Virus record (IMG/VR): IMGVR_UViG_3300029194_000001
Coordinates: 68,238 to 132,237 of that record
DNA from: a virus
DNA: 64,000 nt
Strand: one strand, 5' to 3'
Shown: piece by piece, positions 3,659 to 58,473 of the stretch
Layout of the letters: each line of letters opens with the position of its first letter
Numbering within the stretch: position 1 is the stretch's first letter
Program-made: the position numbers and the translations under genes
Notes under the pieces: model-generated
Seen by the model: only the letters and a program-made list of their open reading frames with translations
Databases searched by the model: none
Told to the model about the DNA's origin: nothing

Positions 3659-4782
3659 CTGTTTTATTACCCTATAGGCTTTTTATCCTATAGTTCTGGG
3701 GATTTCTCCCATATCCATAAAGCGCAAGTAAAACATTACGGAATACGTCTGTCAATTCAGACCAGCTTAGCATACATTTTCTTCGGGGATAATATTTTGT
3801 AATTCTATTAAAAATGATTTCATATTATGTACGTTGTCAAAACAAGTAAATAAACTTCTAAAATCCTTTATTTCATATTTTTTGTTAATTATATTGATTA
3901 AACTTGATAATGTTGCTCTTATTTTATTTTTTGGACAATTTAATACTAAATTTTTATTTTGTAATACCCATTTTTCTATATCTTTTTTTATTTCTTTTTT
4001 ATGAATAATATTATTTTCATGATTTTTCTTCGCTGCAATATCTACACCTTTTTGCCAAGTTTTAGCATTTGTAGCACATTGATCACTACAATAAATTCTT
4101 CTGTTAGTTTCCCATGTGCTCAAAACAATTTCTTTTCCACAATATGCGCAAGTAAGTACTTTTGTTTTTTTAGGTTTACTCTTTTGTGTTTCATTTCCTT
4201 TTCGTAATCCAGCCAACATTTTCTTTGATGTTTCAGGATTTAGCCATTTTATCTTAGTAGTCTCACTTATTTTTCTTTTGGTCTCTTCAGATTTTTTTCC
4301 GCCATTACATCCTCCAGAATCAAGATTGTATCCAAATACTTTGTAATTGGAGTTGTAATATTTAATCCAGTATCTTTCTTTTTCATTCAATTCTTCAATA
4401 TTATCTGCGGAATCTATTTCTTCAAAAGTAAAGTTATTTTCTCCATATTTGTTTATAGCGTTGTGAAAATAAACAGATTTTCTTTTTTCGCACTTTGCTT
4501 CTCTAATATGTTGATTTTTTCTATATTCTAAGGAATTAGTAGTTTGTCCAATATATATTTTGTTGTTAATTAAATTTGTTGCTTTATAAATAATCAGATT
4601 TATTACCTCCTCTGATTATCCCCTACTGATCCGTACTCGTGGATGGATTATTGCTAACATAACGCTCACCATCTATGCGTTACAATCCCCTATGTTGTAG
4701 TAGGATCTCGGTATTCCCATATCCTAAGACTTAGGGTTCACCGATTTTACGGAATGTTTTACTTGCGCCCAAGAACCCAAGC
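3659..4782 (-). mobile_element. group I self-splicing intron (1124 nt) inside the RNR gene, carrying a GIY-YIG homing endonuclease ORF
   Basis: Exon 1 ends ...AAT CCT TGT (NPC) on a U. The intron starts GCUUGGGUUCUUGGGCGCAAG. GCAAG can pair with exon CUUGU as P1, with a G-U wobble at the splice site. The adjacent GGUUCUU is the exact reverse complement of the exon-2 start AAGAACC, which is P10. The intron ends ...AAAACAG with a terminal G. Removing it gives an in-frame NPC-EEPL join that restores the N-x-C-x-E catalytic motif. Confidence 0.75.
3767..4597 (-). CDS. GIY-YIG homing endonuclease, intron-encoded; non-ATG start likely (CTG, ATT or ATA after GGAGG)
   Basis: Minus-strand translation upstream of the 3767..4390 ORF continues in frame. 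It gives IYKATNLINNKIYIGQTTNSLEYRKNQH, the GIY...YIG motif. GGAGG lies 8 nt upstream of the CTG at 4597. A C-terminal zinc-finger-like CAYCGK...CSDQC region follows. Confidence 0.7.
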   Translation of the reverse strand: MIIYKATNLINNKIYIGQTTNSLEYRKNQHIREAKCEKRKSVYFHNAINKYGENNFTFEEIDSADNIEELNEKERYWIKYYNSNYKVFGYNLDSGGCNGGKKSEETKRKISETTKIKWLNPETSKKMLAGLRKGNETQKSKPKKTKVLTCAYCGKEIVLSTWETNRRIYCSDQCATNAKTWQKGVDIAAKKNHENNIIHKKEIKKDIEKWVLQNKNLVLNCPKNKIRATLSSLINIINKKYEIKDFRSLFTCFDNVHNMKSFLIELQNIIPEENVC

Positions 4783-5595
4783 ACAAGGATTAGTTCCGGC
4801 ATAATGAAAATTATTGTCACAACTAAGTAAATTCCAGTTTTCGATTCTGTCCCAGAAAAGCATTCCAGGCTCTGCATAATCCCAGTTCATTTCACATAAT
4901 TTGTGGAACATTTCATATGCATCAATTGTTTTAGTAATAGTTTCACCTGTCTCAGCTCTAGTAAAGTTAAGTGTAAATGGCTGTTTATTTTTTACTGCGG
5001 CCATAAATTTGTCTGTAATACGAACAGAGATATTAGCTTTTGTTACTTTATCAAGATCTGATTTAATTCCAATAAATTCCTCAAGATCTGGATGTTCGCA
5101 GGACAAGCTAATCATTAATGCTCCTCTACGTCCCTGTTGACAAATTAATCCAGTGATCAAAGAGTATAAATCCATAAAACTAACTGAGCCTGTTGTGGTT
5201 TTTGCAGAGTTTCTTACTACAGACCCTCTAGGTGCTAACTTGCTAATATCGATTCCACATCCACCACCATAAGAATATGTACGTGCAAGTTTCTTTGCAC
5301 AATCAAAAATAGATTCAATGTTATCCTCTGGAGGTGTAATAACATAACAGTTGCTAAGTGTGGTTTTTACATACTTATCGTTACTGACATCAATATCTTT
5401 GTTTACACCTCTGTTAGCAAGGATTCTCCCACCAAAGAGAAATTTCTTATCCTTAATTAACTGTTTTACTTCCTCATTCCAACCAGAAACTCTATCAAGC
5501 CACTGATCAAATGTTTCTCCATTAAACTGATACTTTCTCTCCCAGATATCCTGTCCCAGTTTATTGTCTTTTCCTAACCATTCTTGTACAGTCAT
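4783..5595 (-). CDS. nrdJ: ribonucleotide reductase, exon 1 (N-terminal 271 aa)
   Basis: Translation MTVQEWLGK...LSNCYVITPPED...GTNPC ends exactly at the catalytic NPC. The in-frame stop that follows belongs to the intron. Confidence 0.75.
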
Positions 5596-31330: not shown

Positions 31331-31522
31331 TTACCAAACTTCATAAATTTTCTCTAAAACATCTTTAAACGATTCGGCTTTATCAATGTAAATACCACAT
31401 TCGCATAAGATATTAATAGACTCATTTACACTATCAGCCTCGGTTAAAGCGTAAATAATATTATTATGTAATTCTCTTTTATCCATATTATTTCTCTTCT
31501 TCGACAGTTGTTTCATTGGCAT
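31331..31522 (-). CDS. hypothetical small protein
   Basis: 63-aa ORF. Confidence 0.3.
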   Translation of the reverse strand: MPMKQLSKKRNNMDKRELHNNIIYALTEADSVNESINILCECGIYIDKAESFKDVLEKIYEVW

Positions 31523-32507
31523 CGTCTGTCATATTAATAATTGTTCCGGAAGATCCACTAACCATTGGAAGTTCGCCATTCCAACGCTCCATCTTAATTT
31601 TCTCAATAAGTTCTGGAGTTAAGCTCTCTGCAATCTTCTTGTTTGCTTCTGCTTCGGCTTCTGCAGCAATCTTAGTAGCTTCTGCCTGACCTTCTGCTTT
31701 GATTTTTGCCTGTTCAGCATTAATCTGTGCGGTTTCTTTATTCTGCTCTGCTGTGATAAGAGCAACTTCTTTCTCTTTTTCAGCATTAATCTTCGCAGTC
31801 TTAGCTTCAATTGTTGCAAGCTCCTGATCCTGCTGTGCTGTTACCTTTTTCTGAATTGCAGCTGTAGTCTCTTCATCTGTTTCAATTCTTGTAAAGTTTA
31901 CAGTATCAATAATAATTCCGTATTTGTCGAATTTTGCTTTGAGATAATCATCAAGTGCCTGATTAAGCTCCTGCCTTTTATCACCAAATACATCAGTTAC
32001 AGGATATTTTGCAGATACTTCCTGAGACCACGCAATAATCTTAGGTTTAATGAATGTATTTTTAATACTTTCACCACTCTTACCTTTAAATGTTTTGAAA
32101 ATTTCTGTAATTCTATCCTCATCAAAACGATATGAGAATTCCACATCTACATTGATTGATTTTCCATCAGATGTTGGAATATTAAAGCTTTCGTCTTTAT
32201 CAGAATCCCCCTTATCATCTTTAGTAAGATAAGACTGCTCGAGGGCGATTGAATATTCCGTTACTTTCTGTGTAGGCGTTTTAAAGTTCCATCCCTCTTT
32301 CATAGTTTCGCCATTAACTCCACCATGAGTAGCATCGTATATAATCCCAATATAACCAGGGTCAATCTTAACTGTGTTTAAACCACCCAATGCAAGTCCA
32401 CCAACAATAACAGCTCCAGCAATAATTCCACCAGTTCTTTTTTTACTCATCTTTTTTATCCTCTTTGTTTTCATTTTCTTTATCTTCCATTGCATCTTTA
32501 ACACCAT
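31488..32507 (-). CDS. SPFH/band-7 (stomatin/prohibitin/HflK-like) membrane protein
   Basis: N-terminal TM helix (IIAGAVIVGGLALGG), an SPFH core, and a long Ala/Glu/Lys-rich coiled-coil tail (AEQNKETAQINAEQAKIKAEGQAEATKIAAEAEAEANKK). Confidence 0.7.
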   Translation of the reverse strand: MVLKMQWKIKKMKTKRIKKMSKKRTGGIIAGAVIVGGLALGGLNTVKIDPGYIGIIYDATHGGVNGETMKEGWNFKTPTQKVTEYSIALEQSYLTKDDKGDSDKDESFNIPTSDGKSINVDVEFSYRFDEDRITEIFKTFKGKSGESIKNTFIKPKIIAWSQEVSAKYPVTDVFGDKRQELNQALDDYLKAKFDKYGIIIDTVNFTRIETDEETTAAIQKKVTAQQDQELATIEAKTAKINAEKEKEVALITAEQNKETAQINAEQAKIKAEGQAEATKIAAEAEAEANKKIAESLTPELIEKIKMERWNGELPMVSGSSGTIINMTDDANETTVEEEK

Positions 32508-36733: not shown

Positions 36734-37155
36734 ATAAGCAAATTTTATCAATTTTGTTTACTGACATAAATTCGCCATTATAATATGCCTAATTTTGTAA
36801 ATAAAGCATTATTATACGCATATGTCCATTCTGCCACTGCACGACCTAATTTTTTAAATGCATCTAAAATATTAATAGTGGTGTGCTATTACGCCAAAAG
36901 GGGACTTGTCCTTACCTGTTAAGGGGTGACGTATCATAACTCTTTACATCCTATTCTCTTACTCGTTTATCTTCGATTGAAGTTTTTCATACCTTTAGAC
37001 TTAAAGCCCTACTCCTTAGATGATGGCTGCTTCTAAGCCAACATTCCACTATTCAACTTCTTAATTCTTTTTCTTCTTTACTTTTCCAGTGCAGAAACCT
37101 ACAATAAAAGCTGTTGCAATACAAATGATAAATGCCCCGATATTTATAACAATCA

Positions 37156-37923
37156 TTATTTGTTGTTTCTCCTTCGTTTCATCTCAGCAAGTACTTCATC
37201 AGCCGCACGATTTCTTTCCTGTGTTTCCATTCTGCGATCCATTGCCTCTGTACTTGTGTCATAAGCAATCTGCGCTCCTGCTGCACGTTCTCTTGTTTTC
37301 TTCGCACCCTCGCGCACTCTTTCAAGCATACGGTCACTTTCGTTTGTGCTTGCACTTGCATTCATGCCCTCATGCAGAGAAATAATCTGCTGATCTGCTT
37401 CCATTTGATAAACCGTTCTTTCTTTTTCCTCTTTGAGTTCATCGAGTTCCTGCTTAATAGCACTACGGATTTCATTCTGCTGCTCTTTTGCTTTTTTGTA
37501 TTCTTCAATAGTATCTTTCAACGTCTCAATCTTACCCTGAATAGTAATCTTCTTCATAGCATACTGTCTTGCAGTATCATCATCACCAGAATCCAGACAA
37601 TTATTGATAGACTTATCAATCTTCATAAGTTCTTTTTTGAGGTCGTACTGTTCTTTTTCTGCTTCATCCAGTTTACCGGCAATCTCTGTATAAGACTGTT
37701 CTGCTTTGCTGTACAGAGTCTCTTTTTCTCTGATCGCATTATTGAAATAATCTCTTGCACCATCCGGCGTAGAAGCGTCCTGTCTTGCGATTTCTTCCGT
37801 TCTTCCTCTGAACTTAATTACGAGTTGCTTGAAAAATGTTTTGTTTAAAATCAGTGCCGCAATAATAATTACTCCCAAGATTGAGAGACAAAAGATAACT
37901 ACATTACTTGTTCCTACTGTCAT
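37156..37923 (-). CDS. PspA/IM30-like coiled-coil protein with an N-terminal TM anchor (tentative)
   Basis: N-terminal TM (VVIFCLSILGVIIIAALIL) then about 220 aa of charged heptad repeats. The segment order and spacing resemble PspA/LiaH. It lies immediately upstream of the TerD genes. Confidence 0.4.
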   Translation of the reverse strand: MTVGTSNVVIFCLSILGVIIIAALILNKTFFKQLVIKFRGRTEEIARQDASTPDGARDYFNNAIREKETLYSKAEQSYTEIAGKLDEAEKEQYDLKKELMKIDKSINNCLDSGDDDTARQYAMKKITIQGKIETLKDTIEEYKKAKEQQNEIRSAIKQELDELKEEKERTVYQMEADQQIISLHEGMNASASTNESDRMLERVREGAKKTRERAAGAQIAYDTSTEAMDRRMETQERNRAADEVLAEMKRRRNNK

Positions 37924-37924
37924 T

Positions 37925-38503
37925 TTATTCTACCTCTACTTCAAATTCTTTGCACAGTTCTAAAAGACCGCCATCCCGTCCTTCTCCTACTGCATGAAAC
38001 TTCCATTTTGATTCATCACGATAAATTTCACCAGCAATGATAGCTGTAGAATTTCCGAACTTCTCTTTGAGATCGTATCTCATAATTTCGTTTCCAGTTA
38101 CATCATCTACAATACGGATATATGAGTTTTCCACCATGCCAAAATTCTGCATACGGCGTTCTGCCTCAAAAATGGTCACACAAAATACTACTCTGTCCGC
38201 ATATTTTGGAAGTTTTTCAAGATCCACTTTGATGACTTCATCATCACCCTCTCCAAAGCCTGTTAAATTATCTCCGCTATGGATTACTCCACCACTCGGA
38301 TGTTTCAGGTTATTGTAAAATACAAAATCATTATCAGATCTTGTTATACCAGCTTTGGTAACAACAAATGCAGAAGCATCCAAATCAAAATCTCCATCAT
38401 CATCATACTTTGCTGTGTCCCAACCAAGGCAAACGGAAATTCTATTTACAATACTGTCCTTTGACAGTGCAACTTTATCTCCCTTTTTAAGACTTACTGA
38501 CAT
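37925..38503 (-). CDS. terD: TerD-domain protein (tellurium-resistance TerD/TerE/TerZ family)
   Basis: KGDKVALSK...GWD...DLDASAF...GDNLTGFGEGDDE...FGMVEN...IIAGEIYR, the diagnostic TerD Ca-binding motifs. Confidence 0.9.
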   Translation of the reverse strand: MSVSLKKGDKVALSKDSIVNRISVCLGWDTAKYDDDGDFDLDASAFVVTKAGITRSDNDFVFYNNLKHPSGGVIHSGDNLTGFGEGDDEVIKVDLEKLPKYADRVVFCVTIFEAERRMQNFGMVENSYIRIVDDVTGNEIMRYDLKEKFGNSTAIIAGEIYRDESKWKFHAVGEGRDGGLLELCKEFEVEVE

Positions 38504-38533
38504 ATCACTTTATCTCCTTCATTATTTCCTTCG

Positions 38534-39187
38534 TTATTTGTATCTTTTTGCCATATCAGAAATACTACCATCCTGTGTTCCCTCACCGATAGCTTTAAAC
38601 TGCCATTCATCATTTTCGTCACGATACAGCTCTCCAACGATAAGTGCTGTACATTTGTCATAACCATCTGTAAGATTGTAGCGACAAATTTCTTCTTTGG
38701 TTGCATCATCTACAATTCTTGCATAACAGTTTTTGATCATTCCAAAATGCTGCCCCTTAACTCTACAGTTGTAGATATTCACAACCACTACCAACTTCTT
38801 AATATCCGGCGGCATTTTCTTCAAATCAATCGCAATCTGTTCGTCATCATTTCTTTTGCCCTTTCCACCAACAAGATTGTCACCCCTATGTTTAACGCAA
38901 CCGCTATCATGTGTAAGATTTCCATAATAAATAATATCATCAGATCTTGTCAGACTACATTCTGTAACTTCATCTGTTTCTACCTTTGAAAAAAGTCCGA
39001 ACAGTCCAGATTTCACTTTCTTTGAAATTCGTTTTGTGGATTCACGAAGTACAAATACAGAAGAATCACAATCAATTCTGCTTCCGCTCTGTGCCATATC
39101 CCATCCAAGTCCTACAGTTACATTTGCCAGTTTCTCTACTGCTTTTGAAAGATTTACTTTTTGCCCTTTTGTTAAACTTACTGCCAT
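38534..39187 (-). CDS. TerD-domain protein, paralogue 2 (longer, with an insertion)
   Basis: KGQKVNLSK...GLGWD...DCDSSVF...GDNLVGGKGKRNDDE...FGMIKN. Confidence 0.85.
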   Translation of the reverse strand: MAVSLTKGQKVNLSKAVEKLANVTVGLGWDMAQSGSRIDCDSSVFVLRESTKRISKKVKSGLFGLFSKVETDEVTECSLTRSDDIIYYGNLTHDSGCVKHRGDNLVGGKGKRNDDEQIAIDLKKMPPDIKKLVVVVNIYNCRVKGQHFGMIKNCYARIVDDATKEEICRYNLTDGYDKCTALIVGELYRDENDEWQFKAIGEGTQDGSISDMAKRYK

Positions 39188-39205
39188 TATTTATTTCCTC
39201 CTACA

Positions 39206-39772
39206 TTAAACTCCAAAACTACTGCAAAGTGCCTGTAAACCACCGGAATATCCCTGTCCAATAGCATTGAATTTCCATTCTCCGTTGTGGCGATACAGTT
39301 CGCCAAGAACCATTGCTGTTTCTGTGGAATAATCTTCTCCCAGGTCGTAGCGGATCATCTCTTCATCATTGTCTTTGTTTACCATTCTAATGTATGAATT
39401 GGAAACCATACCGAAGTTCTGCAGTCTCTCTTCTGCCATATAGATAGTTACTGTAAATGCAATTTTTTCAACATCAGCCGGAATCTTTGTCAAATCAACG
39501 ATAATCTGCTCATCGTCTCCATTGCCTAAACCAGTAAGATTGTCACCCATATGCTGAACTGCACAACTTGAATGTTTGAGATTGTTATAATATACGAAAT
39601 CATCTGAATTTCTTACTTTTCCATTTGTTCCAAGAAGAAATGCTGCCGAATCCAGATCAAAATTATCACCATCGTACTTATTTGCATCCCATCCCAAACC
39701 AACGATAATCTGCTTTAATCCTGCGTTTCCTTTTGTAAGATCTACTTTCTGTCCTTTTACTAAACTTACCAT
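39206..39772 (-). CDS. TerD-domain protein, paralogue 3
   Basis: KGQKVDLTK...GLGWD...DLDSAAF...[13 protein letters not shown]...FGMVSN. Confidence 0.9.
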
Positions 39773-39786
39773 AATATTTTCTCCTT

Positions 39787-39975
39787 TTATTTTCTAGGAG
39801 TGGCATTTTTACCACTCCATTTATTATCTACTACTCGAAATGAAATAGGATATGCCATAACAGTTAAAAGGATAAATGGCAGAAACTTTGTTGCACATGC
39901 AAGCCCCAGCCCTACGGCGTAACAACACAAGGTTATATTTTCAATTTTCTTGTACTCTTTATCTCTTTTAACCAT
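39787..39975 (-). CDS. small membrane protein
   Basis: 62-aa ORF with two hydrophobic segments. Confidence 0.35.
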
Positions 39976-39983
39976 ATACTTTC

Positions 39984-42611
39984 CTACTTTCTTTTAATTT
40001 TTATAACAGCTTTTCGTACTAAATCAATTGGGATAATCATAAATGCCAAAACAACTGTTACACCCCACTGCATAAGCGTCATTGCTGTACATCCCATAAT
40101 ATCTCCCCCGAACTGTGCCAGAGCAAATGTTAAGGCGAAAATTACAACTGCAATTTCGATGAAAAGTTTATTTTTGCCGATACCCTTAAACAGATTGAAT
40201 CCGTCTGTTCTAATATTAAATCCGTTGAATGTTGCCATCATAATGAGTAGTGCAAATCTGACTGTGGCATAAACAGACTCATTGTTTCCGAAAATTTTCT
40301 GTACCGGTGGTAATAAAGTAATACCAAAGATTCCAATAAATGCCACAACTGATACTGCAATCTGACCGATAGTTTCTTTTGAAAGAAGTTTTGATCCTTT
40401 CGGAATAGGCTTTTCTTTCATATATTCATCTTTCGCCGGTTCTCCACCAAAGGAAAGTGAATTAAGAGAATCCATAACAATGTTAATTACAAGAATCTGT
40501 ACTGCTGCGACTGCTTCTACAGCCATGATGATCGGATATAAAATACTTAGAATTACCAGACCTACATTGATAGGCAATTGGAATTTCAGGAACTTCATAA
40601 CGTTGTGCATGAATGTTCTTCCAAGAAGAACCGCATCTGTGATAGATACAAAGTTGTCATCTGTGATAATAATATCTCCAGCTTCTTTACATACGTCTGT
40701 TCCAGATCCCATTGAGAATCCAACATCTGCAGCTTTCAGTGCTGGTGCATCATTTGTTCCATCGCCAGTCATACCTACACAAAGACCAAGTTCTTGAGCT
40801 AAACGTACAATTCTAAGTTTAGTGTTTGGTGTTGCTCTAGCAATAACTTTAATATAAGGAAGTTTTTCTTTTGCCTCTTCATCTGACAATGCATCAAAGT
40901 CAATAGCAGACATTGCAATATCAGATTCACTTGTGATCAATCCAGCATCTTTTGCGATAGCTTTCGCTGTGTCGATAACGTCGCCAGTTACCATCATTAC
41001 TTGGACTCCTGCATCGTGCATTTTTGCCACTGCTTCTGGTACTTCCGGACGAACATCATCACGAATTGCAACCAAAGATGTAATAATAAGATCATTTGGG
41101 AATCCATCTTCTGGAAGCTTAGAAGAACTATAACCAGTAGCAATTACTCTCATTGCTTTAACGGTATATGATCTTACAATCATTTTAAGTTTATCTTTAT
41201 CAATAGGCTCAAGACCGTTTAGAGTCACGCATTTTGTTGCTGCATCAATCAATCTCTCTGGAGCACCTTTATAATATGTAAATGTCTCACCGTTATATTC
41301 TGTTTCAACAGCACTAAATTTATTTGCACTATTAAAACTCTTCTTGTTTACAATAGTTGTAGATCCAGTGATTTTCTTATACTCATCTGCATTAACTAAA
41401 GAAAGTAATGCTCTCTCTGTGGCATTTCCACCAACAATTTTATTATTTTCATCAAACATTGCACTACTATTTAAGATGACATTATATTTAAACAAATTAT
41501 ATGTATTTTCATCTTCTATAATAGATTTTCCATCACCCATTACATTCTCTACTGGAACAAGTTTCCCAACTGTAAGCGTTCCTGTTTTGTCGGTACAAAG
41601 TAACTGAATATTACCTGCTTCTGGAATCTTGTTAGTGTGTTTAGCTAGGACATTGTGTTTAATCATTACTTTTGCATTCTGCGCGGTAATAAGGTTAATA
41701 ATCAACGGAAGTCCTTCTGGTACTGCTGCGACAATAATGGTAAGCGCAGTTACTGCAATGGTAAGAATATTTTTCAAAATACCAATCCAACCCATTCCAA
41801 AGTATTCAGCGATACCGCCGTACTGGATAATGTTTGTGATAATCAATGCTACAACAATGATTAAAGCTCCGATATACCCGAATTTACTAATCTGTCCAGC
41901 AAGATCCTCCAACTGGATTTCCAGGGAAGTCTTTGTTTCTTCGATTTCATCAATGGTCGAAATTGTCTGACCGTTTACTGTGTCAACACCAACATTAGTT
42001 ACGATCATCTTTCCTTCACCGTCTGTTACCGTTGTTCCGGAAAACAGTGCGTAAGAATTTGTATAATCACTTGAATCCGCTTTTCTCTGACCACCAAATG
42101 CGATAGGTGAATCTTCTTTATCCCATGCTGTTTTTTTGCAAGGCTCTGACTCTCCATTCAATACAGAGTTGTCAACTTTTATATTTCCTTCTACCAGATA
42201 ACCATCTGCATGAATGGCTTCTCCGGACTGAATGATAACCAGATCACCGACAACCAAATCATTTGTATTGATATGCTCGATTTTTCCATTTCTGATTACA
42301 TTACAATAATGAACTGATGTCCTATCCTTCAACTCTTTTGTACTTTTCTGGCTTTTCAGTCCGGTGTTCATTCCTAACAATGCGATTGCCAATAATACTA
42401 CTGCTACACCAATCGGTTCTGAATAAGATCCCTGTCCAAACACTGCAATAACTGTAAATACAATCATCATTGCTAATAGAATCTGATTTATGTGATCTTT
42501 AAATGTTTCCATAAAGAACTGAAACCATGTTTTCAGCTTTTTCTCTGGCAGTTTATTACTACCATACTTTTCTCTCTGCTTTTCTACTTCACTACTTTTT
42601 AAACCGTACAA
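39984..42611 (-). CDS. P-type ATPase, Ca2+-transporting type (P2A/P2B-like)
   Basis: Phosphorylation motif CTDKTGTLT, TM4 PEGLP, MVTGDVIDTAKAIA, hinge GDGTNDAPALKAADVGFSMG, and about 10 TM segments. Confidence 0.88.
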   Translation of the reverse strand: MYGLKSSEVEKQREKYGSNKLPEKKLKTWFQFFMETFKDHINQILLAMMIVFTVIAVFGQGSYSEPIGVAVVLLAIALLGMNTGLKSQKSTKELKDRTSVHYCNVIRNGKIEHINTNDLVVGDLVIIQSGEAIHADGYLVEGNIKVDNSVLNGESEPCKKTAWDKEDSPIAFGGQRKADSSDYTNSYALFSGTTVTDGEGKMIVTNVGVDTVNGQTISTIDEIEETKTSLEIQLEDLAGQISKFGYIGALIIVVALIITNIIQYGGIAEYFGMGWIGILKNILTIAVTALTIIVAAVPEGLPLIINLITAQNAKVMIKHNVLAKHTNKIPEAGNIQLLCTDKTGTLTVGKLVPVENVMGDGKSIIEDENTYNLFKYNVILNSSAMFDENNKIVGGNATERALLSLVNADEYKKITGSTTIVNKKSFNSANKFSAVETEYNGETFTYYKGAPERLIDAATKCVTLNGLEPIDKDKLKMIVRSYTVKAMRVIATGYSSSKLPEDGFPNDLIITSLVAIRDDVRPEVPEAVAKMHDAGVQVMMVTGDVIDTAKAIAKDAGLITSESDIAMSAIDFDALSDEEAKEKLPYIKVIARATPNTKLRIVRLAQELGLCVGMTGDGTNDAPALKAADVGFSMGSGTDVCKEAGDIIITDDNFVSITDAVLLGRTFMHNVMKFLKFQLPINVGLVILSILYPIIMAVEAVAAVQILVINIVMDSLNSLSFGGEPAKDEYMKEKPIPKGSKLLSKETIGQIAVSVVAFIGIFGITLLPPVQKIFGNNESVYATVRFALLIMMATFNGFNIRTDGFNLFKGIGKNKLFIEIAVVIFALTFALAQFGGDIMGCTAMTLMQWGVTVVLAFMIIPIDLVRKAVIKIKRK

Positions 42612-42613
42612 AA

Positions 42614-43666
42614 TTAAATTTCTCCTTTCACAATTCTTTCGTTTACAGACATAACAAACTCATTGATTCTTTTATAATCCGGACTGTCTGGAAGTGATGT
42701 GTTTTCTGCATCATATTCCAGTCTCTTTTCCAACTCATTTACCATCTCAAAGAATTCTGGAATTGGCTGTTTGTTTTCATCTAAATATTTACCATTTCTA
42801 ATGTCCATCAACAAATAATGTTCTTTTTCTCTGTATGTAATAATCTTCTCATTTTCCAAAATATCAAAACACATATAGTACAGGCGAACCAAATGCATCA
42901 TGTGCTTACCTAATTTTCCATGCTCTACCGCATGTTTATTACGCTTACCAATTTTCGAGTAATCTTTAACAATATTATTCATTTCGGACCACATAGATTT
43001 ATAGTCACGTAACGGATAATGCTTTAGATTAATATCCATAAATACTTCGGTATCATAGTCTTCTTGAACCGCCTTATCTACATATAGTTTTATAGAATCA
43101 TCCGGAAATGTAAAATATTTTGTAGGAAAAGTATAAAATGCATTGTTTATCGAATTTAAAATATGTTGTTCACGCTCTGTTTGTCCTACTAAACGAGCTG
43201 CCTTGTTATTTGTTCTTCTTAATTGTTGCGAGGCATAACCACCAAATGAATGAATTGCCCTTTTAGATAAAAACATATGTGCATTATCTAATATTTCTTG
43301 TCCAATTGGATGAATATATAAATAATGTTCTGGTTTAAGCCCTCCTAGCTCAATAACATTAGGGTTGCAAGCTGCCATAAGATAAATAATCTTATTAAAC
43401 GCATAAATAGTTGTATCTGTATCTTCGTTGATAAATTGTTCAAAATTCTGGTTAGTAAGAATTTCATGCTTTTTATTTAAGCAAATTCCCCTCAAATCCA
43501 AATCGCTCGTTCCGTCAGATTTTTGAGTACCATAGCTATAGCTTCCACCTAACCCCAACAAAATAATGTTGGAGCCAAGGTGTTCATTGTTTCTCAGAAA
43601 ATCATAGTCCGGACCAGCTACTTTTTTCTTAATCTCTTCAATGTTCATATCAGTCAAACCTATCAA
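42614..43666 (-). CDS. Pol-beta-superfamily nucleotidyltransferase (MNT/ANT/CD-NTase-like fold; subclass unresolved)
   Basis: LGLGGSYSYGTQKSDGTSDLDL matches the G[GS]x9-13[DE]h[DE]h signature. It is followed by a helical C-terminal domain of about 200 aa. Confidence 0.6.
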   Translation of the reverse strand: MIGLTDMNIEEIKKKVAGPDYDFLRNNEHLGSNIILLGLGGSYSYGTQKSDGTSDLDLRGICLNKKHEILTNQNFEQFINEDTDTTIYAFNKIIYLMAACNPNVIELGGLKPEHYLYIHPIGQEILDNAHMFLSKRAIHSFGGYASQQLRRTNNKAARLVGQTEREQHILNSINNAFYTFPTKYFTFPDDSIKLYVDKAVQEDYDTEVFMDINLKHYPLRDYKSMWSEMNNIVKDYSKIGKRNKHAVEHGKLGKHMMHLVRLYYMCFDILENEKIITYREKEHYLLMDIRNGKYLDENKQPIPEFFEMVNELEKRLEYDAENTSLPDSPDYKRINEFVMSVNERIVKGEI

Positions 43667-45698
43667 TCTTAATCATTTTTACAATGTTGCCGGTAGTCAC
43701 TTTTACAATCAGATTCCACTCTTTATCTTTACTGTAGCCAACACCACAAGCACTTGCTTCATCTTCACCTTCAATAGGTGTTGAAGCTGTATATGCCTCA
43801 AGTGTTTTTCTAATTTCCTGTAAATCACCCTTAAGCATTTCAGTAAAGAAACCACGTCCAACTCCGCCTGTCATATCTTTGCAGTCTTTCAATAAGAAGA
43901 AAGTATGTTCACCAGATCGTTTATATGGATTTTCTCCCCACATGTTTGGAGACGGAATAATTGCAACAACTTCTGAGAATCCGTTGCTAATTCCCCAAGT
44001 TTCTTTAGTTTCTGTCTTTTTAGAATTTGCAGTAAACTTAGGATCTTCGCCATGACAATAATCAAATTCAAATACTACGTCTGTATTTTTTCTACAACTA
44101 TCACTTATAAGATTTCCATCATAAGTATAAATTTTTCCATTTACTTCAAGCTCTAATTTATATGGATTCTGGGTTGCTCTATTTGTATAGTTATTAACAA
44201 AGAATTTATAACGTCCTTCTGGAACTTTACCAAGTGGCCAACGAATGTTCTCAACAGGTGTTACTGTCTCACCATGAACATTTGCATCAACATCCAATGA
44301 ACCATATCCGTGATTCTTATGTCCAAAATAAATTTCTACTCCATCAGGACAAATACAATGCAAATCTAAATCTGTTCGTGTATTCCAGATTAGAGAGCAT
44401 CTGATCTCACAACCTTCATATTTTGCACCTTTTGCTTCAAGTCGCTCACGAATCACAGAATCAATACCACTCTGATAATACCAAGAAAATGGATTATCCC
44501 AGTTCATAATATTTTCAGATTCCGGAACCGCAGCTGTTACCATTCCCATAAGATGAGTTGTTCCATCAACCTTTACTTCCAATTTATCTGCGGTAGGAAG
44601 AATTGTTTTTCCGAATTTATCCCATGTCATAGTTACCTGTGGAATTACAGATTTTGTTTCATTACTATCTACAGCTTTAGTCTGAACTCCTGCAAATACT
44701 CCAGTCTTTACTTCATCTTTCTTTTCAGTTTTACTCTTCCAAATAAATTCATTCTCAGGAAGCTCATCCAGTTTTGCATATCTTCTTCTAAGTGAATCTG
44801 CAAGACCAAGTTTTTCAATAAGTTTTTCAGCACTTTCAACAGCTCTCTGAGTAGGTGCAGACTGTGAACGTCTATAATTCTCGGCACTCATATTAGTCTC
44901 AAATTTACGCTTGATAGTATCAAAGTCATCACCATCTACAATATAGTCAAGTAATGTACCTAACATACTTCCGGAAATGTGAGTAAATCCATTTGGAGCT
45001 GTAGCAGCATATTTCCAAATCATATTAGTGTGCTGTGGCTGATCATTGATAGAAGCAATCTTCTCTTTTGTTTCCTTAAACCATTTGCACATTGCTACAT
45101 AGCTGCTACCTCTATATAAACTTCCGGATTCTAATAAATTAAGTGCCTGATCAATCTGTGGCATGGAATACTTCTCAAGTGCTCTTTTCAGCATTCCATA
45201 ATCTTCAGCTTTCTCAGCAGATACCTGTGATGCATTTTTTACTCTTGATGTATTGATCATTACTCTTGGAAGTTTTACAGAAAAATGATGGAATCCATTA
45301 GTATCATATGTTCCAAGATCCACATAGTCTGATACGAATATATCCTGGACCTGTGCAGATTCAACAATCTCTTTCATCTGTGTAATTGGCTCAATAAACA
45401 TTCCAGGAATATTTTCAACATTCCAAATAGCAGACTCAGTTGTTCCATCTTCTTTAATAAATACAAGTCCACCAAATCGATCTACAAAGTGTTTACAAGC
45501 TCTACATGTATATTCCTGTTTGCAAGCATCTGGAAGATAGTAAAGAAATGTGTCAAATAAGTCAGATACGCTTGTTCTGAATAATGGTGTTTTTACATTG
45601 TCTTTCAATTTTGATGCAAAAGTTTTCTTAATGTTTTCAATAAGTTCCTCATATCCATTGTTCTCATTTTTCCAGATTTCCGGATCATACATCTTCAT
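43650..45698 (-). CDS. large hypothetical protein (682 aa); last gene of the Ter-like cluster
   Basis: A long, uninterrupted ORF that overlaps the NTase gene by 17 nt, which suggests translational coupling. No motif recognised. Confidence 0.5.
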   Translation of the reverse strand: MKMYDPEIWKNENNGYEELIENIKKTFASKLKDNVKTPLFRTSVSDLFDTFLYYLPDACKQEYTCRACKHFVDRFGGLVFIKEDGTTESAIWNVENIPGMFIEPITQMKEIVESAQVQDIFVSDYVDLGTYDTNGFHHFSVKLPRVMINTSRVKNASQVSAEKAEDYGMLKRALEKYSMPQIDQALNLLESGSLYRGSSYVAMCKWFKETKEKIASINDQPQHTNMIWKYAATAPNGFTHISGSMLGTLLDYIVDGDDFDTIKRKFETNMSAENYRRSQSAPTQRAVESAEKLIEKLGLADSLRRRYAKLDELPENEFIWKSKTEKKDEVKTGVFAGVQTKAVDSNETKSVIPQVTMTWDKFGKTILPTADKLEVKVDGTTHLMGMVTAAVPESENIMNWDNPFSWYYQSGIDSVIRERLEAKGAKYEGCEIRCSLIWNTRTDLDLHCICPDGVEIYFGHKNHGYGSLDVDANVHGETVTPVENIRWPLGKVPEGRYKFFVNNYTNRATQNPYKLELEVNGKIYTYDGNLISDSCRKNTDVVFEFDYCHGEDPKFTANSKKTETKETWGISNGFSEVVAIIPSPNMWGENPYKRSGEHTFFLLKDCKDMTGGVGRGFFTEMLKGDLQEIRKTLEAYTASTPIEGEDEASACGVGYSKDKEWNLIVKVTTGNIVKMIKIDRFD

Positions 45699-46340: not shown

Positions 46341-46517
46341 TTGTATACTCCTTTATTGATTTTTCAAGAGAATTGTATTACAGTTATCAATTAAGATATT
46401 AGTAGTTCCATGGATACCACACCAGGAACGTTGCACGCTACTGTATCCTGGTGAGGAACCTGTGGGAGTGCTAAAAGCACGTTTTAACATATGAATAAGA
46501 AAGGACAGAACGTTATA

Positions 46518-46700
46518 ATGACGATATTATTATATGGTAGTTTTGGAATTGCTATCATTTATGCTATTTGTCATATTACTTCTGTAGTCGGAAAGTGCTA
46601 TTTGGTGCACAAAGTCACTGAATCCAACTTGTCTGATGAACAAGTGAAGTCAATAGCCAAAATGATGTCCAAAGATATAAATATTAATATCCCAAAATAA
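46518..46700 (+). CDS. 60-aa small membrane protein on the plus strand; start moved to the second Met, which has an SD
   Basis: AAGGA sits 13 nt upstream of ATGACG (MTILLYGSFGIAIIYAICHITSVVG...). The first ATG of the track ORF has no SD. A structured leader lies upstream. Confidence 0.4.
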   Translation: MTILLYGSFGIAIIYAICHITSVVGKCYLVHKVTESNLSDEQVKSIAKMMSKDININIPK

Positions 46701-56443: not shown

Positions 56444-57328
56444 TTACCTCGCTCCATTAAAATATTTTACAATCTGACTTCCAACCCAGCGTCCCATTGG
56501 AACGGCAACAGCATTACCAATCTGTCTATAAGCATCACTATCACTTCCACAAAATTCAAACCAATCTGGAAAACCCTGTAGTCTTGCATACTCTCTGACT
56601 GTATATGGTCGGATTCTATTACCGTCTTTAATTAATCTAGTTCCTCTATCTTTTGAATAGTGTGCTACACATGTTGGTGCAAGATCATCACATTCAGGAT
56701 CAGAAACAATTGGTTTATCTCTGTAATTACCATTAATACGATTTAACACATACTGCGGAATATTTATTTCACTATCTGTTTGAATAATATCTTTCAGTCG
56801 TAATGGAGTTTCATCTGGATAATCAAGATTAGTTAACGGCTTTTTACTACCAATAAGAATTAATCTCTTACGTTCTTGTGGAAGCCACATATTTGCGTTC
56901 ACAGGACATTCAATTCTTACATAATAATCTGGCAATTTAGTCAACGCCTCCATAACTACTTTAAACTTAATCATCCCAGGAACATTCTCAACTATATACA
57001 TTTCTGGTTGTGCCAATGCAATATGCCTAAAGAAATGAAGAAATAAATCATCACCGGTTCTTGTACCATTAATATCTGCAGCAATCGAGTATTTTGTACA
57101 TGGAAAAGTTCCAATATACACATCTGCATCTTGCTGATCAAGAACTGTAATTTTAGTAATATCAGCTTCGTTAACCTTGTGCTTAAAATTTTTTCTTAAC
57201 GTATCACAACATTTCTTATCAATTTCGTATGATTCAAGAATATTGATCCCTGCTTCTTCAATTCCAAGATCCATTCCACCTGCACCACTAAAATAGCTTT
57301 TCGCTGTAATCTGCATTTTATTTTCCAT
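56444..57328 (-). CDS. DNA (cytosine-5)-methyltransferase
   Basis: Motif I FSGAGG, motif IV PCTKYS (the PC dipeptide with catalytic Cys), and motif VI ENVPGM. Confidence 0.88.
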   Translation of the reverse strand: MENKMQITAKSYFSGAGGMDLGIEEAGINILESYEIDKKCCDTLRKNFKHKVNEADITKITVLDQQDADVYIGTFPCTKYSIAADINGTRTGDDLFLHFFRHIALAQPEMYIVENVPGMIKFKVVMEALTKLPDYYVRIECPVNANMWLPQERKRLILIGSKKPLTNLDYPDETPLRLKDIIQTDSEINIPQYVLNRINGNYRDKPIVSDPECDDLAPTCVAHYSKDRGTRLIKDGNRIRPYTVREYARLQGFPDWFEFCGSDSDAYRQIGNAVAVPMGRWVGSQIVKYFNGAR

Positions 57329-57400: not shown

Positions 57401-57685
57401 TTACTCTACTGAATGACTTGTATTCACAATCTTCTTATAAATACCTTCGTATAAGACTCCATCATTACCATTGTACGTATATTCTGCTAAGATGGCTGCA
57501 GCACTAGTACCTATAATACATTTATAGTTCTGCGGAGTCTTACACAACCAACTTACAAATACGTCATCGACACCAATTTCCTGGATGTCATTTGGTCCTT
57601 TATTGGCATAACTGCTTTTGTTATACCATTCTACAAATTTGTTCTTACATACATTCTGAAAATGATTCATTGATTTAATTGTCAT
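57401..57685 (-). CDS. hypothetical protein
   Basis: 94-aa ORF between the two methyltransferase genes. Confidence 0.35.
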   Translation of the reverse strand: MTIKSMNHFQNVCKNKFVEWYNKSSYANKGPNDIQEIGVDDVFVSWLCKTPQNYKCIIGTSAAAILAEYTYNGNDGVLYEGIYKKIVNTSHSVE

Positions 57686-58473
57686 ACCTTTTCACTTCCT
57701 CTTAATCTTTCTTCTGCAATATCACAATATTCTTTACTAATCTCGAATCCAATATAATTTCTATCAAGCTCAATGGCAGCTTTTGCAGTAGTTCCGCTTC
57801 CAATAAACGGATCAAGAATTAAATCACCAGGATTTGACCATGATAAAATATGATCTTTCGCCAATTGTTCTGGAAATACAGCAGGATGCCCTGATTTTCC
57901 ACCACCAATACTATACGTAAATATATTATTATGTATCTTTTCTGACTTTACTGTGTATAAATCTGTCGTCCTGTCCCTACGACATTGATTATCATCCATA
58001 ACAGTTTTTCTATCTCCCCAATTAAACACTTTTCCGGCATTTTTAGTTGGAACCTTTATTGGATTAAATGTACTTGGCTTACCCTTACTAAATACAAACA
58101 TATACTCAAAACATTGCTCGTAACGATTATGATTTTGCGGAATTGGATTGGTTTTTTCAAAAATCATAGTATCATGCAACTTAAATCCAACTTTCATAAA
58201 CTGTAACGCCTGTTTAAACGAGGTCCCTGTTTCAGATCCATTCTTAGTCTTATCTCCAACAACCCAAACCAAAACACCACCTGGTTTAGTTACACGGAAT
58301 AACTCATAAGAAATTGCATCAAAATCAAATGAATATCCATTATATTTTCTCAAATCATCATATGGCGGGCTTGTTACTGTAAGATCAACTATGTCTGAGT
58401 CAAGTTTTTTTAATCCAATAAGGCAATCTTCATTATAAATTTTATTTATTTCTAACATTTTCATACGGAGCAA
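57682..58473 (-). CDS. DNA N6-adenine or N4-cytosine methyltransferase (beta-class)
   Basis: The catalytic SPPY comes before the AdoMet motif DPFIGSGTT, which is beta-class order. Confidence 0.82.
   Translation of the reverse strand: MLRMKMLEINKIYNEDCLIGLKKLDSDIVDLTVTSPPYDDLRKYNGYSFDFDAISYELFRVTKPGGVLVWVVGDKTKNGSETGTSFKQALQFMKVGFKLHDTMIFEKTNPIPQNHNRYEQCFEYMFVFSKGKPSTFNPIKVPTKNAGKVFNWGDRKTVMDDNQCRRDRTTDLYTVKSEKIHNNIFTYSIGGGKSGHPAVFPEQLAKDHILSWSNPGDLILDPFIGSGTTAKAAIELDRNYIGFEISKEYCDIAEERLRGSEKV

Follow-up and report, generated by a model that had tools for sequence, protein, structure and literature searches.

Ca2+ P-type ATPases, TerD proteins and PspA-like proteins have been described in phages before. 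The gut Jug phages of Bacteroides/Phocaeicola (Sci Adv 2026) possess a Ca2+ P-type ATPase, three terD genes and a terD-pspA-like operon (PMC12880540). Their Ca2+ ATPase is highly transcribed, along with a small protein encoded in the same transcript, and the genes are inferred to have been acquired from hosts; the pump is mentioned there for just four smaller phages, and no cassette is described (PMC12880540). Ter genes had been reported in jumbo phages earlier (PMC7824862).

The DNA analyzed here is a window of 64,000 nt (positions 68,238 to 132,237 of IMG/VR record IMGVR_UViG_3300029194_000001). Its genes for DNA polymerase, RecJ, DnaB, RNR and ligases, its five tRNAs and the location of its genes on one strand indicate that it is from a phage, as the initial annotation had proposed. 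That annotation also reported three TerD proteins, a Ca2+ pump and a PspA-like protein carried by this phage, and all the ORFs it described are present, on the minus strand, at the coordinates given below. The locus combines a bacterial-type operon of a Ca2+-ATPase and three TerD genes with a PspA-like family that was seen in our survey only on phage or phage-like contigs.

Genes of the cassette

The functional unit is probably a cassette of six genes, possibly seven. In the direction of transcription it would consist of a PMCA-type Ca2+ pump, a 62-aa peptide, three TerD proteins, a TM-anchored PspA/ESCRT-III-like protein and perhaps a 31-aa peptide. Intergenic spacing is tight (1-30 nt) and Shine-Dalgarno sequences are present, which fits co-translation of the genes.

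The first gene (39984..42611, minus strand) has a TTG start preceded by the Shine-Dalgarno sequence AAAGGAG. Its 875-aa product matches the Pfam families E1-E2_ATPase, Cation_ATPase_N/C and Hydrolase, and scores 514.9 bits against TIGR01517, the NCBIfam equivalog for PMCA-type Ca2+ ATPases, only just clearing the cut-off of 507. The closest solved relatives are ACA8, LMCA1 and PMCA, and the catalytic and Ca-site residues are all aligned (PEGLP, DKTGTLT, TGDGTNDAPAL, the M5 Asn and the M6 N...D). These features uphold the earlier assignment to the Ca2+-type P-type ATPases. The protein is a predicted Ca2+ pump, ion specificity not being provable from the sequence of a P-type ATPase.

Between the pump and the TerD genes the ORF list contains a 62-aa peptide (39787..39975, minus strand) with a hydrophobic stretch. 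It matched no family in domain and family searches, but tblastn places a homolog at the same position in 54 of the 84 related loci described below, and it is possibly a small pump-associated subunit.

The three tandem TerD genes were correctly recognized, and all are on the minus strand. The first (39206..39772, 188 aa) encodes the canonical form: it matches PF02342 with an E value of 7e-85, aligns over its full length with the solved TerD of Klebsiella, 2KXT (E 1e-71), and has intact DxD, GDN.TG and GDDE Ca-binding motifs. The second (38534..39187, 217 aa) matches PF02342 in two stretches (E 1e-62); it has an insertion of about 25 residues that includes SGLFGLFSKV, and DCD replaces DLD. A comparable insertion, GLFGALFG, is found in a TerD paralog of the bacterial ter locus L004. 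The third (37925..38503, 192 aa; PF02342 E 1e-72) ends in a TAA stop 1 nt ahead of the ATG of the PspA-like gene. The Ca-binding motifs are conserved among the paralogs.

The PspA-like gene (37156..37923, minus strand) encodes a 255-aa protein that matches phrog_33389. It had been described as PspA/IM30-like and membrane-anchored. Prediction supports the anchor and the fold; the match to the Pfam family is weak, PF04012 scoring 22.4 bits, below the gathering cut-off of 33.9. In an AlphaFold model (pLDDT 81) an N-terminal TM helix is followed by a long helical hairpin and two more helices. The 14 best Foldseek matches to this model in the PDB are all Vipp1/PspA, with TM scores of 0.5-0.65, although their rmsd is high and long helical hairpins match easily. 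A hydrophobic N-terminal TM anchor is present in 36/36 homologs. A profile of the family retrieved only 238 representatives, and canonical PspA was not among them. The protein is best described as a membrane-anchored, PspA/Vipp1 (ESCRT-III superfamily)-like protein.

Members of the family also occur in a second membrane cassette, composed of SPFH, ABC transporter, PspA-like and OmpA/MotB genes, in Bacillus phage G and three further loci (L099, L100 and L102). An SPFH gene lies 5 kb from the cassette in the window. Together these neighborhoods point to a membrane role for the family. In the locus of a divergent family member, L103, a TerD gene also precedes the PspA-like gene.

A further hydrophobic peptide ORF of 31 aa (MIVINIGAFIICIATAFIVGFCTGKVKKKKN; 37061..37156, minus strand) was read from the sequence. 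Its ATG overlaps the PspA-like stop codon (TAATG), and a 29-aa ORF is called at the same place in locus L005. We tentatively regard it as the last gene of the cassette. Neither small membrane ORF appears in the initial annotation.

Conservation of the cassette and its variable neighbors

The locus was compared with 84 related phage loci, 80 from IMG/VR and 4 from metagenome look-ups. All come from a single broad group of gut phages with low GC, and common descent accounts for some of the synteny. The contigs bearing the cassette are about 90-215 kb long and have 33-38% GC. The three TerD genes and the PspA-like gene are present in 84/84 loci, and the ATPase in 78 of the 79 with enough flank. 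The gene order is always the same, while identity falls to 51% for the PspA-like protein and 45% for the ATPase; the ORFs that flank the cassette in the window are found in only 0-20 loci. In locus L076 the pump and two TerD genes have been lost.

Loci L013 and L011 carry a clade-B ATPase that is 45-48% identical to that of the window; their adjacent TerD and PspA-like genes share 82-96% identity with those of the window. ATPase alleles have been exchanged between loci without loss of the cassette architecture, and the flanking genes turn over.

The three TerD genes, the Ca2+ pump and the PspA-like gene are thus a conserved unit. The initial annotation had included two further genes, for a nucleotidyltransferase and a 682-aa protein, in one self-contained operon of seven genes. 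The search for the same order in other phages recovers the core (ATPase, 62-aa peptide, three TerD proteins and PspA-like protein) but not these two genes, whose positions vary, and comparison with the 84 loci cuts the system down to that core. The two genes were also said to lie downstream of the ATPase, whereas both are upstream of it in the direction of transcription, and the 17-nt overlap taken as translational coupling needs an unsupported TTG start: there is an ATG at 43648, 1 nt beyond the stop codon (TGA) of the 682-aa gene.

The nucleotidyltransferase (42614..43648, minus strand, 344 aa; to 43666 and 350 aa with the TTG) is of the Pol-beta superfamily, as had been stated. It matches phrog_388 and PF10127 (RlaP), the latter with 51.9 bits against a Pfam cut-off of 23. 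Members of the RlaP family act in RNA repair, extending damaged 3' ends of RNA by 1-2 nucleotides (NMPs) (PMC12776372). The 682-aa protein (43650..45698, minus strand) has no match in the local Pfam copy and is a DUF8224 protein, whose N-terminal half is of alpha/beta type and contains Cys, and whose second half is rich in beta structure. In the latter there appears to be a divergent TerD-like beta-sandwich (approximately residues 430-550; motifs TDLDLH, LDVDAN and PVEN).

If all seven genes formed one system, the nucleotidyltransferase could make a nucleotide-like signal that is sensed by TerD and, with the 682-aa protein, controls the pump and a PspA-like effector. The possible TerD-like sandwich would suit such a system, and the 682-aa gene, the nucleotidyltransferase and the ATPase are contiguous, with gaps of 1-2 nt, both here and in the three phages most closely related to this one (L009, L013 and L040). 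The 682-aa gene abuts or lies near the cassette, on either side, in 18 loci, but these are only 18 of 84. DUF8224 is a widespread phage and bacterial protein: its genes stand alone in bacteria, and most of its 544 phage records lack the cassette, hundreds of them being from phages without TerD neighbors. The nucleotidyltransferase gave no CD-NTase, SMODS or PADLOC signal. Of 58 loci, 54 have it downstream of the cassette and 4 upstream; in relatives it is typically several genes downstream, often beside a CCA-adding enzyme (within 200 nt in 12/49). An RNA ligase and tRNAs also occur in the window, and homologs of the canonical Ter metabolite-synthesis genes (StiP, PRTase, C-C lyase) were not detectable there. 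A seven-gene signaling system is therefore highly improbable, being largely refuted by the variable positions of the two genes. By its family the nucleotidyltransferase appears to be an RNA-repair enzyme belonging to the RNA-repair set of the phage, a neighbor and not a constant member of the cassette; the 682-aa protein is likewise a neighbor here and not a constant part of the unit.

A putative role at the membrane

The proteins can be assigned to families and folds, their catalytic and Ca-binding residues are conserved, and so is the order of their genes. On this basis we consider protection of the membrane and Ca2+ balance of the infected cell to be the most likely function of the cassette, though with somewhat less than even confidence. 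The earlier suggestion of a role in Ca2+ and membrane homeostasis, or against abortive infection, is plausible. The cassette would act at the cytoplasmic membrane of the infected cell. We infer that the pump exports Ca2+ in vivo, and it could remove the Ca2+ that enters through an envelope disturbed by genome injection, other phages, pore-forming abortive-infection effectors of the host or premature holin action. The soluble TerD proteins may bind Ca2+ as buffers or sensors and may interact with the PspA-like protein or the pump. The PspA-like protein may polymerize on the inner leaflet and stabilize or seal the bilayer. The net effect would be a cell that stays energized and low in Ca2+ until phage replication is complete.

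Relationship to known systems

The classical ter/yce operons (terZABCDEF of IncHI2 plasmids and E. coli O157, yceCDEFGH of B. subtilis, and L004) share with the cassette tandem TerD genes with intact Ca motifs, a Gly/Phe-rich insertion in one TerD paralog and an association with envelope stress. They differ in having TerB, TerC, TelA, YceG, TerF/vWA and the PRTase/StiP/C-C lyase metabolite module, in place of which the cassette has a Ca2+ pump and a PspA-like protein. TerB and TerC were not present among the ORFs scanned, TelA and YceG homologs were not detectable in the window, and TerF/vWA was not found; the locus is not an ordinary ter operon, and the initial annotation was right on both points.

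Ter operons, including those of plasmids, have been linked with phage inhibition and with resistance to (pore-forming) colicins (PMC8123226), and according to a proposal by Iyer et al. the Ter components of jumbo phages are directed against superinfecting phages (PMC7824862). The cassette could thus be a device for superinfection exclusion or inter-phage competition that changes the state of the membrane and of Ca2+, preventing injection by later phages or killing by bacteriocins and so protecting the investment of the resident phage. The cassette has three TerD genes at its conserved heart, and the placement of its pump and PspA-like protein in the membrane would suit an envelope block. However, the presumed membrane-acting components of classical Ter systems (TerC, TelA and TerF) were not found here, nor was the TerB sensor, and no protein matched a PADLOC defence model. 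This explanation, which overlaps in mechanism with membrane and Ca2+ protection and differs mainly in who benefits, seems to us rather unlikely.

A bacterial counterpart is a chromosomal Ca-ATPase-TerD-TerD-TerD-AIM24 operon, located beside the S10 ribosomal operon in a gut bacterium with 59% GC (L095 and L096; fragment L003). Its existence indicates that the link between pump and TerD is of a host type. The pump and three TerD genes have the same order and orientation as in the phage, but an AIM24-family gene takes the place of the PspA-like gene, the third TerD has a Pro-rich extension, and there is no 62-aa peptide. The cassette might accordingly be a moron copied from such an operon for host fitness, serving Ca2+ physiology or tolerance of stress, xenobiotics or antimicrobial peptides in a lysogen or pseudolysogen, with no specific lytic role. 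The phage TerD proteins are 51-67% identical to the bacterial L004 paralogs, and the Jug authors read their pump as manipulating host Ca2+ and metabolism for a competitive advantage (PMC12880540). The phage ATPases, however, are only 34-39% identical to that of the one bacterial operon found, which argues against a recent capture, and the PspA-like partner is from a small family of which our survey found members on phage-like contigs only. The genes surrounding the cassette are for replication and RNA repair and run in its direction; this is not the kind of boundary at which morons lie, and no integrase was seen near the cassette. We regard this origin and role as improbable.

Protection of the membrane, which we prefer, draws on the resemblance of the last large gene product to PspA, Vipp1 (IM30) and LiaH. 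They have in common the predicted helical-hairpin architecture, the best fold matches and a weak PF04012 match. In the phage protein a true N-terminal TM helix replaces the amphipathic helix alpha-0, its score is below the Pfam gathering value, the family profile misses canonical PspA, and PspB, PspC and PspF partners are not present. The recurrent SPFH/Band-7 neighborhood of the family is reminiscent of PspA-YdjI of B. subtilis. In Bacillus phage G (gp243-gp250), also a large phage, a TM-anchored member of the same family (25% identity, E 1e-19) directly follows a membrane transporter module, as here; that module is an ABC system where the cassette has a P-type pump, TerD genes are absent, and the genes that come next encode OmpA/MotB proteins.

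Eukaryotic cells repair the plasma membrane by a Ca2+-triggered ESCRT-III pathway (ALG-2/ALIX/CHMP). The comparison is one of working principle only: in both, Ca2+ clearance would accompany a protein that binds Ca2+ and a polymer of the ESCRT-III superfamily. Homology does not extend to the Ca2+ sensors (a beta-sandwich in TerD, an EF-hand in eukaryotes), and the cassette has no Vps4-like ATPase.

The Jug phages possess the same three kinds of protein and are also gut phages. In their genomes of 360-402 kb the pump and the terD/pspA-like genes belong to different operons, each transcribed independently, which suggests that physical linkage is not obligatory. Because publications of 2025-26 describe these phage Ca-ATPases and terD/pspA-like operons, as separate units, and the bacterial operon exists, the locus is only partly undescribed, contrary to the initial annotation. 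What is new is the fusion of pump, TerD and PspA-like genes into a single invariant block.

Gene order and conservation of the cassette

The window has a GC content of 33%, and essentially all of its genes are on the minus strand. They encode DNA polymerase, RecJ, a DnaB-like helicase, an exonuclease V/Dda-like helicase, ribonucleotide reductase, and DNA and RNA ligases, a gene content that marks the window as the part of a large phage genome devoted to replication and nucleotide metabolism. ARAGORN finds four tRNAs, to which Rfam adds a fifth. At about 96% identity, the window matches IMG/VR contigs 57 kb and 213 kb long; megablast of the 8.5-kb region around the cassette found no match among GenBank phages.

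In the direction of transcription, the minus-strand genes are those for a 144-aa ORF, p144 (46152-45718), a 682-aa protein (45698-43650), a nucleotidyltransferase (NTase; 43648 or 43666 to 42614), a P-type ATPase (42611-39984), a 62-aa membrane peptide (39975-39787), TerD1 (39772-39206), TerD2 (39187-38534), TerD3 (38503-37925), and a PspA-like protein (37923-37156). Intergenic gaps in the string are 1-30 nt. A hydrophobic ORF of 31 aa (37156-37061, minus strand) follows, its ATG overlapping the PspA-like stop codon (TAATG); at the same position in a comparison locus (L005, 10753-10842), which has a PspA-like protein of 73% identity, a 29-aa ORF is called. A non-coding stretch of about 290 nt (36770-37060) then separates the cassette from the gene of a CCA-adding enzyme (36767-35301, minus strand). 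Rfam has no match in or beside the cassette, including this gap. A scan for promoters and terminators was uninformative, with fewer sites than in shuffled sequence and no terminator 3' of the cassette. The only plausible plus-strand gene nearby is a 69-aa hydrophobic ORF with a clear ATG (46491-46700), which probably marks the upstream end of the minus-strand string that holds the cassette. The genes from p144 to the 31-aa ORF may well form one transcript in this phage. As one functional system, the string was rejected on comparative grounds.

PspA-like homologs were traced to 4 metagenome loci, 80 IMG/VR loci, and 5 contigs of metagenome-assembled genomes (MAGs). The cassette is present in at least 111 IMG/VR stretches, of which 80 loci were examined. 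Window proteins were mapped onto the metagenome and IMG/VR loci, and the counts pertain to these 84 loci, the MAG contigs lying outside the count. Three TerD genes followed directly by the PspA-like gene are present in all 84. The ATPase gene is directly upstream in 78 of the 79 loci with enough flanking sequence, the one exception (L076) being truncated, and the 62-aa peptide is detectable between the pump and the TerD genes in 54 loci. The NTase gene follows the cassette in 54 loci and precedes it in only 4. The 682-aa gene is near the cassette in only 18 loci, on the downstream side directly after the PspA-like gene in 15 of them and on the upstream side in 3, and the other flanking ORFs of the window are present in 0-20 loci. 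These counts show that the order ATPase, small peptide, three TerD, PspA-like persists while its surroundings turn over. The initial annotation had grouped the ATPase, TerD, PspA-like, NTase, and 682-aa genes as a seven-gene system whose order might recur in other phages. That order is kept from the ATPase through the PspA-like gene, but the positions of the NTase and 682-aa genes vary. Since the functions of two of the seven genes lie elsewhere, the locus illustrates how gene strings from one genome can mislead.

The lowest identities across loci are 51% for the PspA-like protein and 45% for the ATPase. The ATPases form two clades with 45-50% identity between them. Three loci, L013 (5505-8135) and L011 and L012 (5552-8128), carry an ATPase of the other clade (clade B in L013 and L011), 45-48% identical to that of the window, and TerD and PspA-like proteins that are 82-96% identical to the window's. 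The pairing of the other pump with window-like TerD and PspA-like proteins, as in L013 and L011, indicates that alleles have been exchanged without disturbing the architecture. A PspA-like profile search of genome contigs found only the five MAG contigs, labeled Treponema, Clostridiales, Eubacteriales, and Lachnospiraceae, and no bona fide bacterial PspA-like/TerD locus. All five have the full cassette and a GC content of 33-38%; they are therefore probably phage contigs mis-binned into MAGs.

Several other features of the window were recorded. The ARAGORN tRNAs (Leu, Met, and two Gln) lie between 23682 and 26890. The fifth tRNA, missed by ARAGORN, is at 25502-25570 on the minus strand (Rfam, 39 bits), and a RAGATH-27 RNA is located within the tRNA cluster at 25908-25993 on the minus strand (85.4 bits, gathering score 76.1). 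The ribonucleotide reductase large subunit is apparently split, with the N-terminal part of the barrel at 4759-5595 and the C-terminal part at 2192-3415, both on the minus strand; an unassigned 207-aa ORF lies between them (3767-4390, minus strand), an arrangement that may point to an intron or homing element. A microbial-type poly(ADP-ribose) glycohydrolase (29231-30013, minus strand; PARG_cat_microb, E 2e-29) could counter ADP-ribosylating host defenses. Two DNA methyltransferase genes, one C5-cytosine and one N6/N4, are at 56444-57328 and 57682-58473 on the minus strand.

Proteins of the cassette

The ATPase scores 514.9 bits against TIGR01517, the NCBIfam model for PMCA-type Ca2+ pumps, whose equivalog cut-off is 507.05. 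It passes no other NCBIfam cut-off, and the next models, PMR1 and SERCA, are far under theirs. The closest solved structures are plant ACA8, Listeria LMCA1, and PMCA1/2. The PEGLP sequence (PEGL of M4), DKTGTLT, TGDGTNDAPAL, the M5 Asn, and the M6 N...D all align with ACA8 and LMCA1. The residue at the position of SERCA E771 is non-acidic, as in single-site pumps. With the cut-off passed and the key residues aligned, the assignment of this 875-aa protein to the Ca-type P-type ATPases stands, and it is predicted to be a PMCA-type pump that transports Ca2+. Its start codon is TTG, preceded by the Shine-Dalgarno sequence AAAGGAG.

The three TerD assignments were likewise borne out by PF02342, whose full-length domain model matches the ORFs at 283.6, 208.2, and 240.7 bits (gathering cut-off 25.3; Pfam E-values 7e-85, 1e-62, and 1e-72). 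TerD1 aligns end to end with the solved Klebsiella TerD (2KXT). The Ca2+-binding motifs (DxD, GDN.TG, and GDDE) are invariant in an alignment of the three phage and three bacterial paralogs, with D39, D41, G76-D77-N78, and D86-D87-E88 as the invariant residues. The motifs are as in the Klebsiella TerD, and the phage TerD proteins are predicted to bind Ca2+. In TerD2 the DxD motif reads DCD, and an insertion carries a GLFGLF-type motif; one bacterial paralog has a similar insertion.

The likeness of the last protein to PspA holds at the level of fold but not of the Pfam threshold. Its PF04012 (PspA_IM30) score of 22.4 bits is under the gathering score of 33.9, and some homologs carry a precomputed match to this family. 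An AlphaFold model built on 36 homologs (pLDDT 81) begins with a helix at the N terminus, followed by a long hairpin of helices and two more helices; model helices span residues 53-111, 115-191, 195-223, and 225-253. Its 14 best Foldseek matches in the PDB are all Vipp1 or PspA, with E-values down to 5e-4 and TM scores of 0.5-0.65. The modeled protein is thus predicted to have the ESCRT-III-type fold, with the long alpha1-alpha2/3 hairpin followed by alpha4 and alpha5. Canonical PspA binds membranes peripherally through an amphipathic helix, alpha-0. In contrast, all 36 homologs have a strongly hydrophobic N-terminal segment (Kyte-Doolittle 19-residue mean 2.4-3.7), which is predicted to be a transmembrane (TM) anchor in place of that helix. 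Of 1.84 billion representatives, the family profile retrieves only 238, most of them (nearly all) 240-260 aa long, and it does not draw in ordinary PspA. The TM-PspA-like family is a small, distinct branch.

The NTase and 682-aa neighbors

The NTase had been regarded as a possible maker of a signal molecule. Its sole Pfam match is RlaP (PF10127, 51.9 bits, gathering score 23), it matches phrog_388 at an E-value of 2e-50, and PADLOC returned no matches. A CD-NTase or SMODS signaling enzyme was therefore rejected. RlaP enzymes add one or two nucleotides to damaged RNA 3' ends and are needed for heavily damaged tRNA to regain function (PMC12776372). In jumbo phages, RlaP enzymes are distributed like RNA ligases and occur together with CCA-adding enzymes (PMC7824862). 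The tRNAs, CCA-adding enzyme, and RNA ligase (62533-63783) of the window fit this role in RNA repair, and the NTase gene is within 200 nt of the gene of the CCA-adding enzyme in 12 of the 49 loci that have both. The 17-nt overlap initially reported with the 682-aa gene is an artifact of choosing the most upstream TTG; the most probable start codon of the NTase is the ATG lying 1 nt past the TGA of that gene.

The 682-aa protein has no match in NCBIfam or in a local copy of Pfam that lacks the DUF8224 model, and PDB sequence searches with it and with the NTase found no match. It corresponds to phrog_1735. Homologs that are 34-97% identical over 93-100% of the query carry precomputed PF26675 (DUF8224) matches. 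Foldseek of its model against the PDB returned only generic beta-sandwich matches with E-values above 0.02; residues of about 430-550 were the region compared with TerD in structure and sequence. DUF8224 proteins are present in 544 GenBank phage records, including Ackermannviridae and Caulobacter, Bacillus SP-15, and Brevibacillus Sundance phages. In the two phage examples inspected, the DUF8224 gene has no TerD genes nearby, and stand-alone chromosomal DUF8224 genes are found in Cytobacillus and Aneurinibacillus.

Possible function and relation to known systems

PMCA-type pumps export Ca2+, TerD proteins bind it, and PspA and Vipp1 polymerize on stressed membranes and stabilize them. From these family properties we infer that the cassette most likely acts upon perturbation of the infected cell's envelope, keeping the membrane sealed and cytosolic Ca2+ at a low level. 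The TerD proteins would be Ca2+ buffers or sensors and the anchored PspA-like protein the membrane effector. The beneficiary could be the phage's own lytic program, including resistance to pore-forming abortive-infection effectors. Alternatively, the cassette may exclude competing phages and bacteriocins, as has been proposed for the Ter genes of jumbo phages (PMC7824862) and as the phage-inhibition and colicin-resistance phenotypes of ter operons (PMC8123226) suggest. It may also contribute to host fitness.

A more specific mechanism, which we regard as improbable, would make TerD the Ca2+ sensor of a membrane-damage response. Ca2+ entering through a lesion would load TerD, which would then recruit or activate the anchored ESCRT-III-type PspA-like polymer there, and the pump would clear the Ca2+. 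If true, phages would carry a bacterial and viral equivalent of the Ca2+-triggered ESCRT-III membrane repair of eukaryotes, with survival of their host as its purpose. TerD, annotated for decades as 'tellurite resistance', would gain a mechanism, and the phage-inhibition and colicin-resistance phenotypes of ter operons would be explained. TerD proteins are very common. Here their genes are flanked by those of a Ca2+ export pump and of an ESCRT-III-type membrane protein, an order kept in more than 100 phage contigs, and a bacterium also keeps the pump with three TerD genes. The arrangement leads to the concrete hypothesis that TerD acts in Ca2+-linked membrane protection. In large gut phages, a compact membrane and ion-homeostasis module would join the known host-takeover functions.

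The pump and TerD arrangement also occurs in bacteria. A 4.5-kb record labeled 'Bacteriophage sp.' (L003, 59% GC) has a Ca-ATPase gene followed by three TerD genes, and its ATPase is that of an abundant gut bacterium, represented by 191 contigs of up to 2.3 Mb. In two chromosomal loci of this bacterium (L095 and L096, 10001-15864; 59% GC), the order Ca-ATPase-TerD-TerD-TerD-AIM24 lies directly upstream of the S10 ribosomal-protein operon. The third TerD is 297 aa long with a Pro-rich N-terminus. A PspA-like gene is absent from this operon, and the 370-aa gene that follows AIM24 is not PspA-like. The bacterial operon is the likely source of the phage cassette.

The TM-anchored PspA-like family pairs with different transporters. 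A second conserved cassette, with a distant member, has the order SPFH, ABC permease, ABC ATPase, 177-aa protein, PspA-like, and OmpA/MotB. It was recorded at loci L094 (Bacillus phage G, gp243-gp250), L099, L100, and L102, and one of the phage contigs that carry it is 144 kb long. In L103, which has a divergent member, a TerD gene precedes the PspA-like gene. An SPFH/Band-7 gene is also located 5 kb downstream of the cassette in the window (31488-32507, minus strand), and SPFH recurs beside TM-PspA-like genes in L071 (about 10965, directly after the PspA-like gene) and in the ABC-type cassette (L099, 5227-6093).

The classical ter cluster of bacteria, represented by L004, consists of YceG, TelA, three TerD, a C-C lyase, StiP, and a PRTase, and none of the partners of TerD is detectable in the window. 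There was no tblastn match to TelA or YceG of L004, and the best match to its PRTase_2/TRSP, StiP, and C-C lyase had an E-value of 0.019 over 43 residues. TerB, TerC, and TelA have no Pfam match in the cassette, 10 flanking ORFs, or 10 further ORFs of at least 200 aa, small ORFs being only partly scanned; the reported absence of TerB and TerC is confirmed for the ORFs scanned.

A full-text literature search found one directly relevant work, on the Jug phages, Bacteroides phages of 360-402 kb (bioRxiv 2025, Sci Adv 2026; PMC12880540). It describes Ca2+ P-type ATPases that are highly transcribed and were 'not detected previously in phages', together with three terD genes and an operon of terD and pspA-like genes; beyond the Jug phages, it mentions the pump for 81 further huge phages and for four smaller ones. 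Iyer et al. described Ter components of jumbo phages in 2021 (PMC7824862). The individual parts and the general idea are thus already published, and the system cannot be called undescribed as a whole. The Jug study treats the pump and the terD/pspA-like genes as separate operons, whereas in the window they form one fused cassette. What appears to be new is this invariant fused cassette, in at least 111 IMG/VR stretches; the identification of its PspA-like component as a TM-anchored family, here only on phage or phage-like contigs and common to the ABC-transporter cassette; and the bacterial pump-TerD operon as its likely source.
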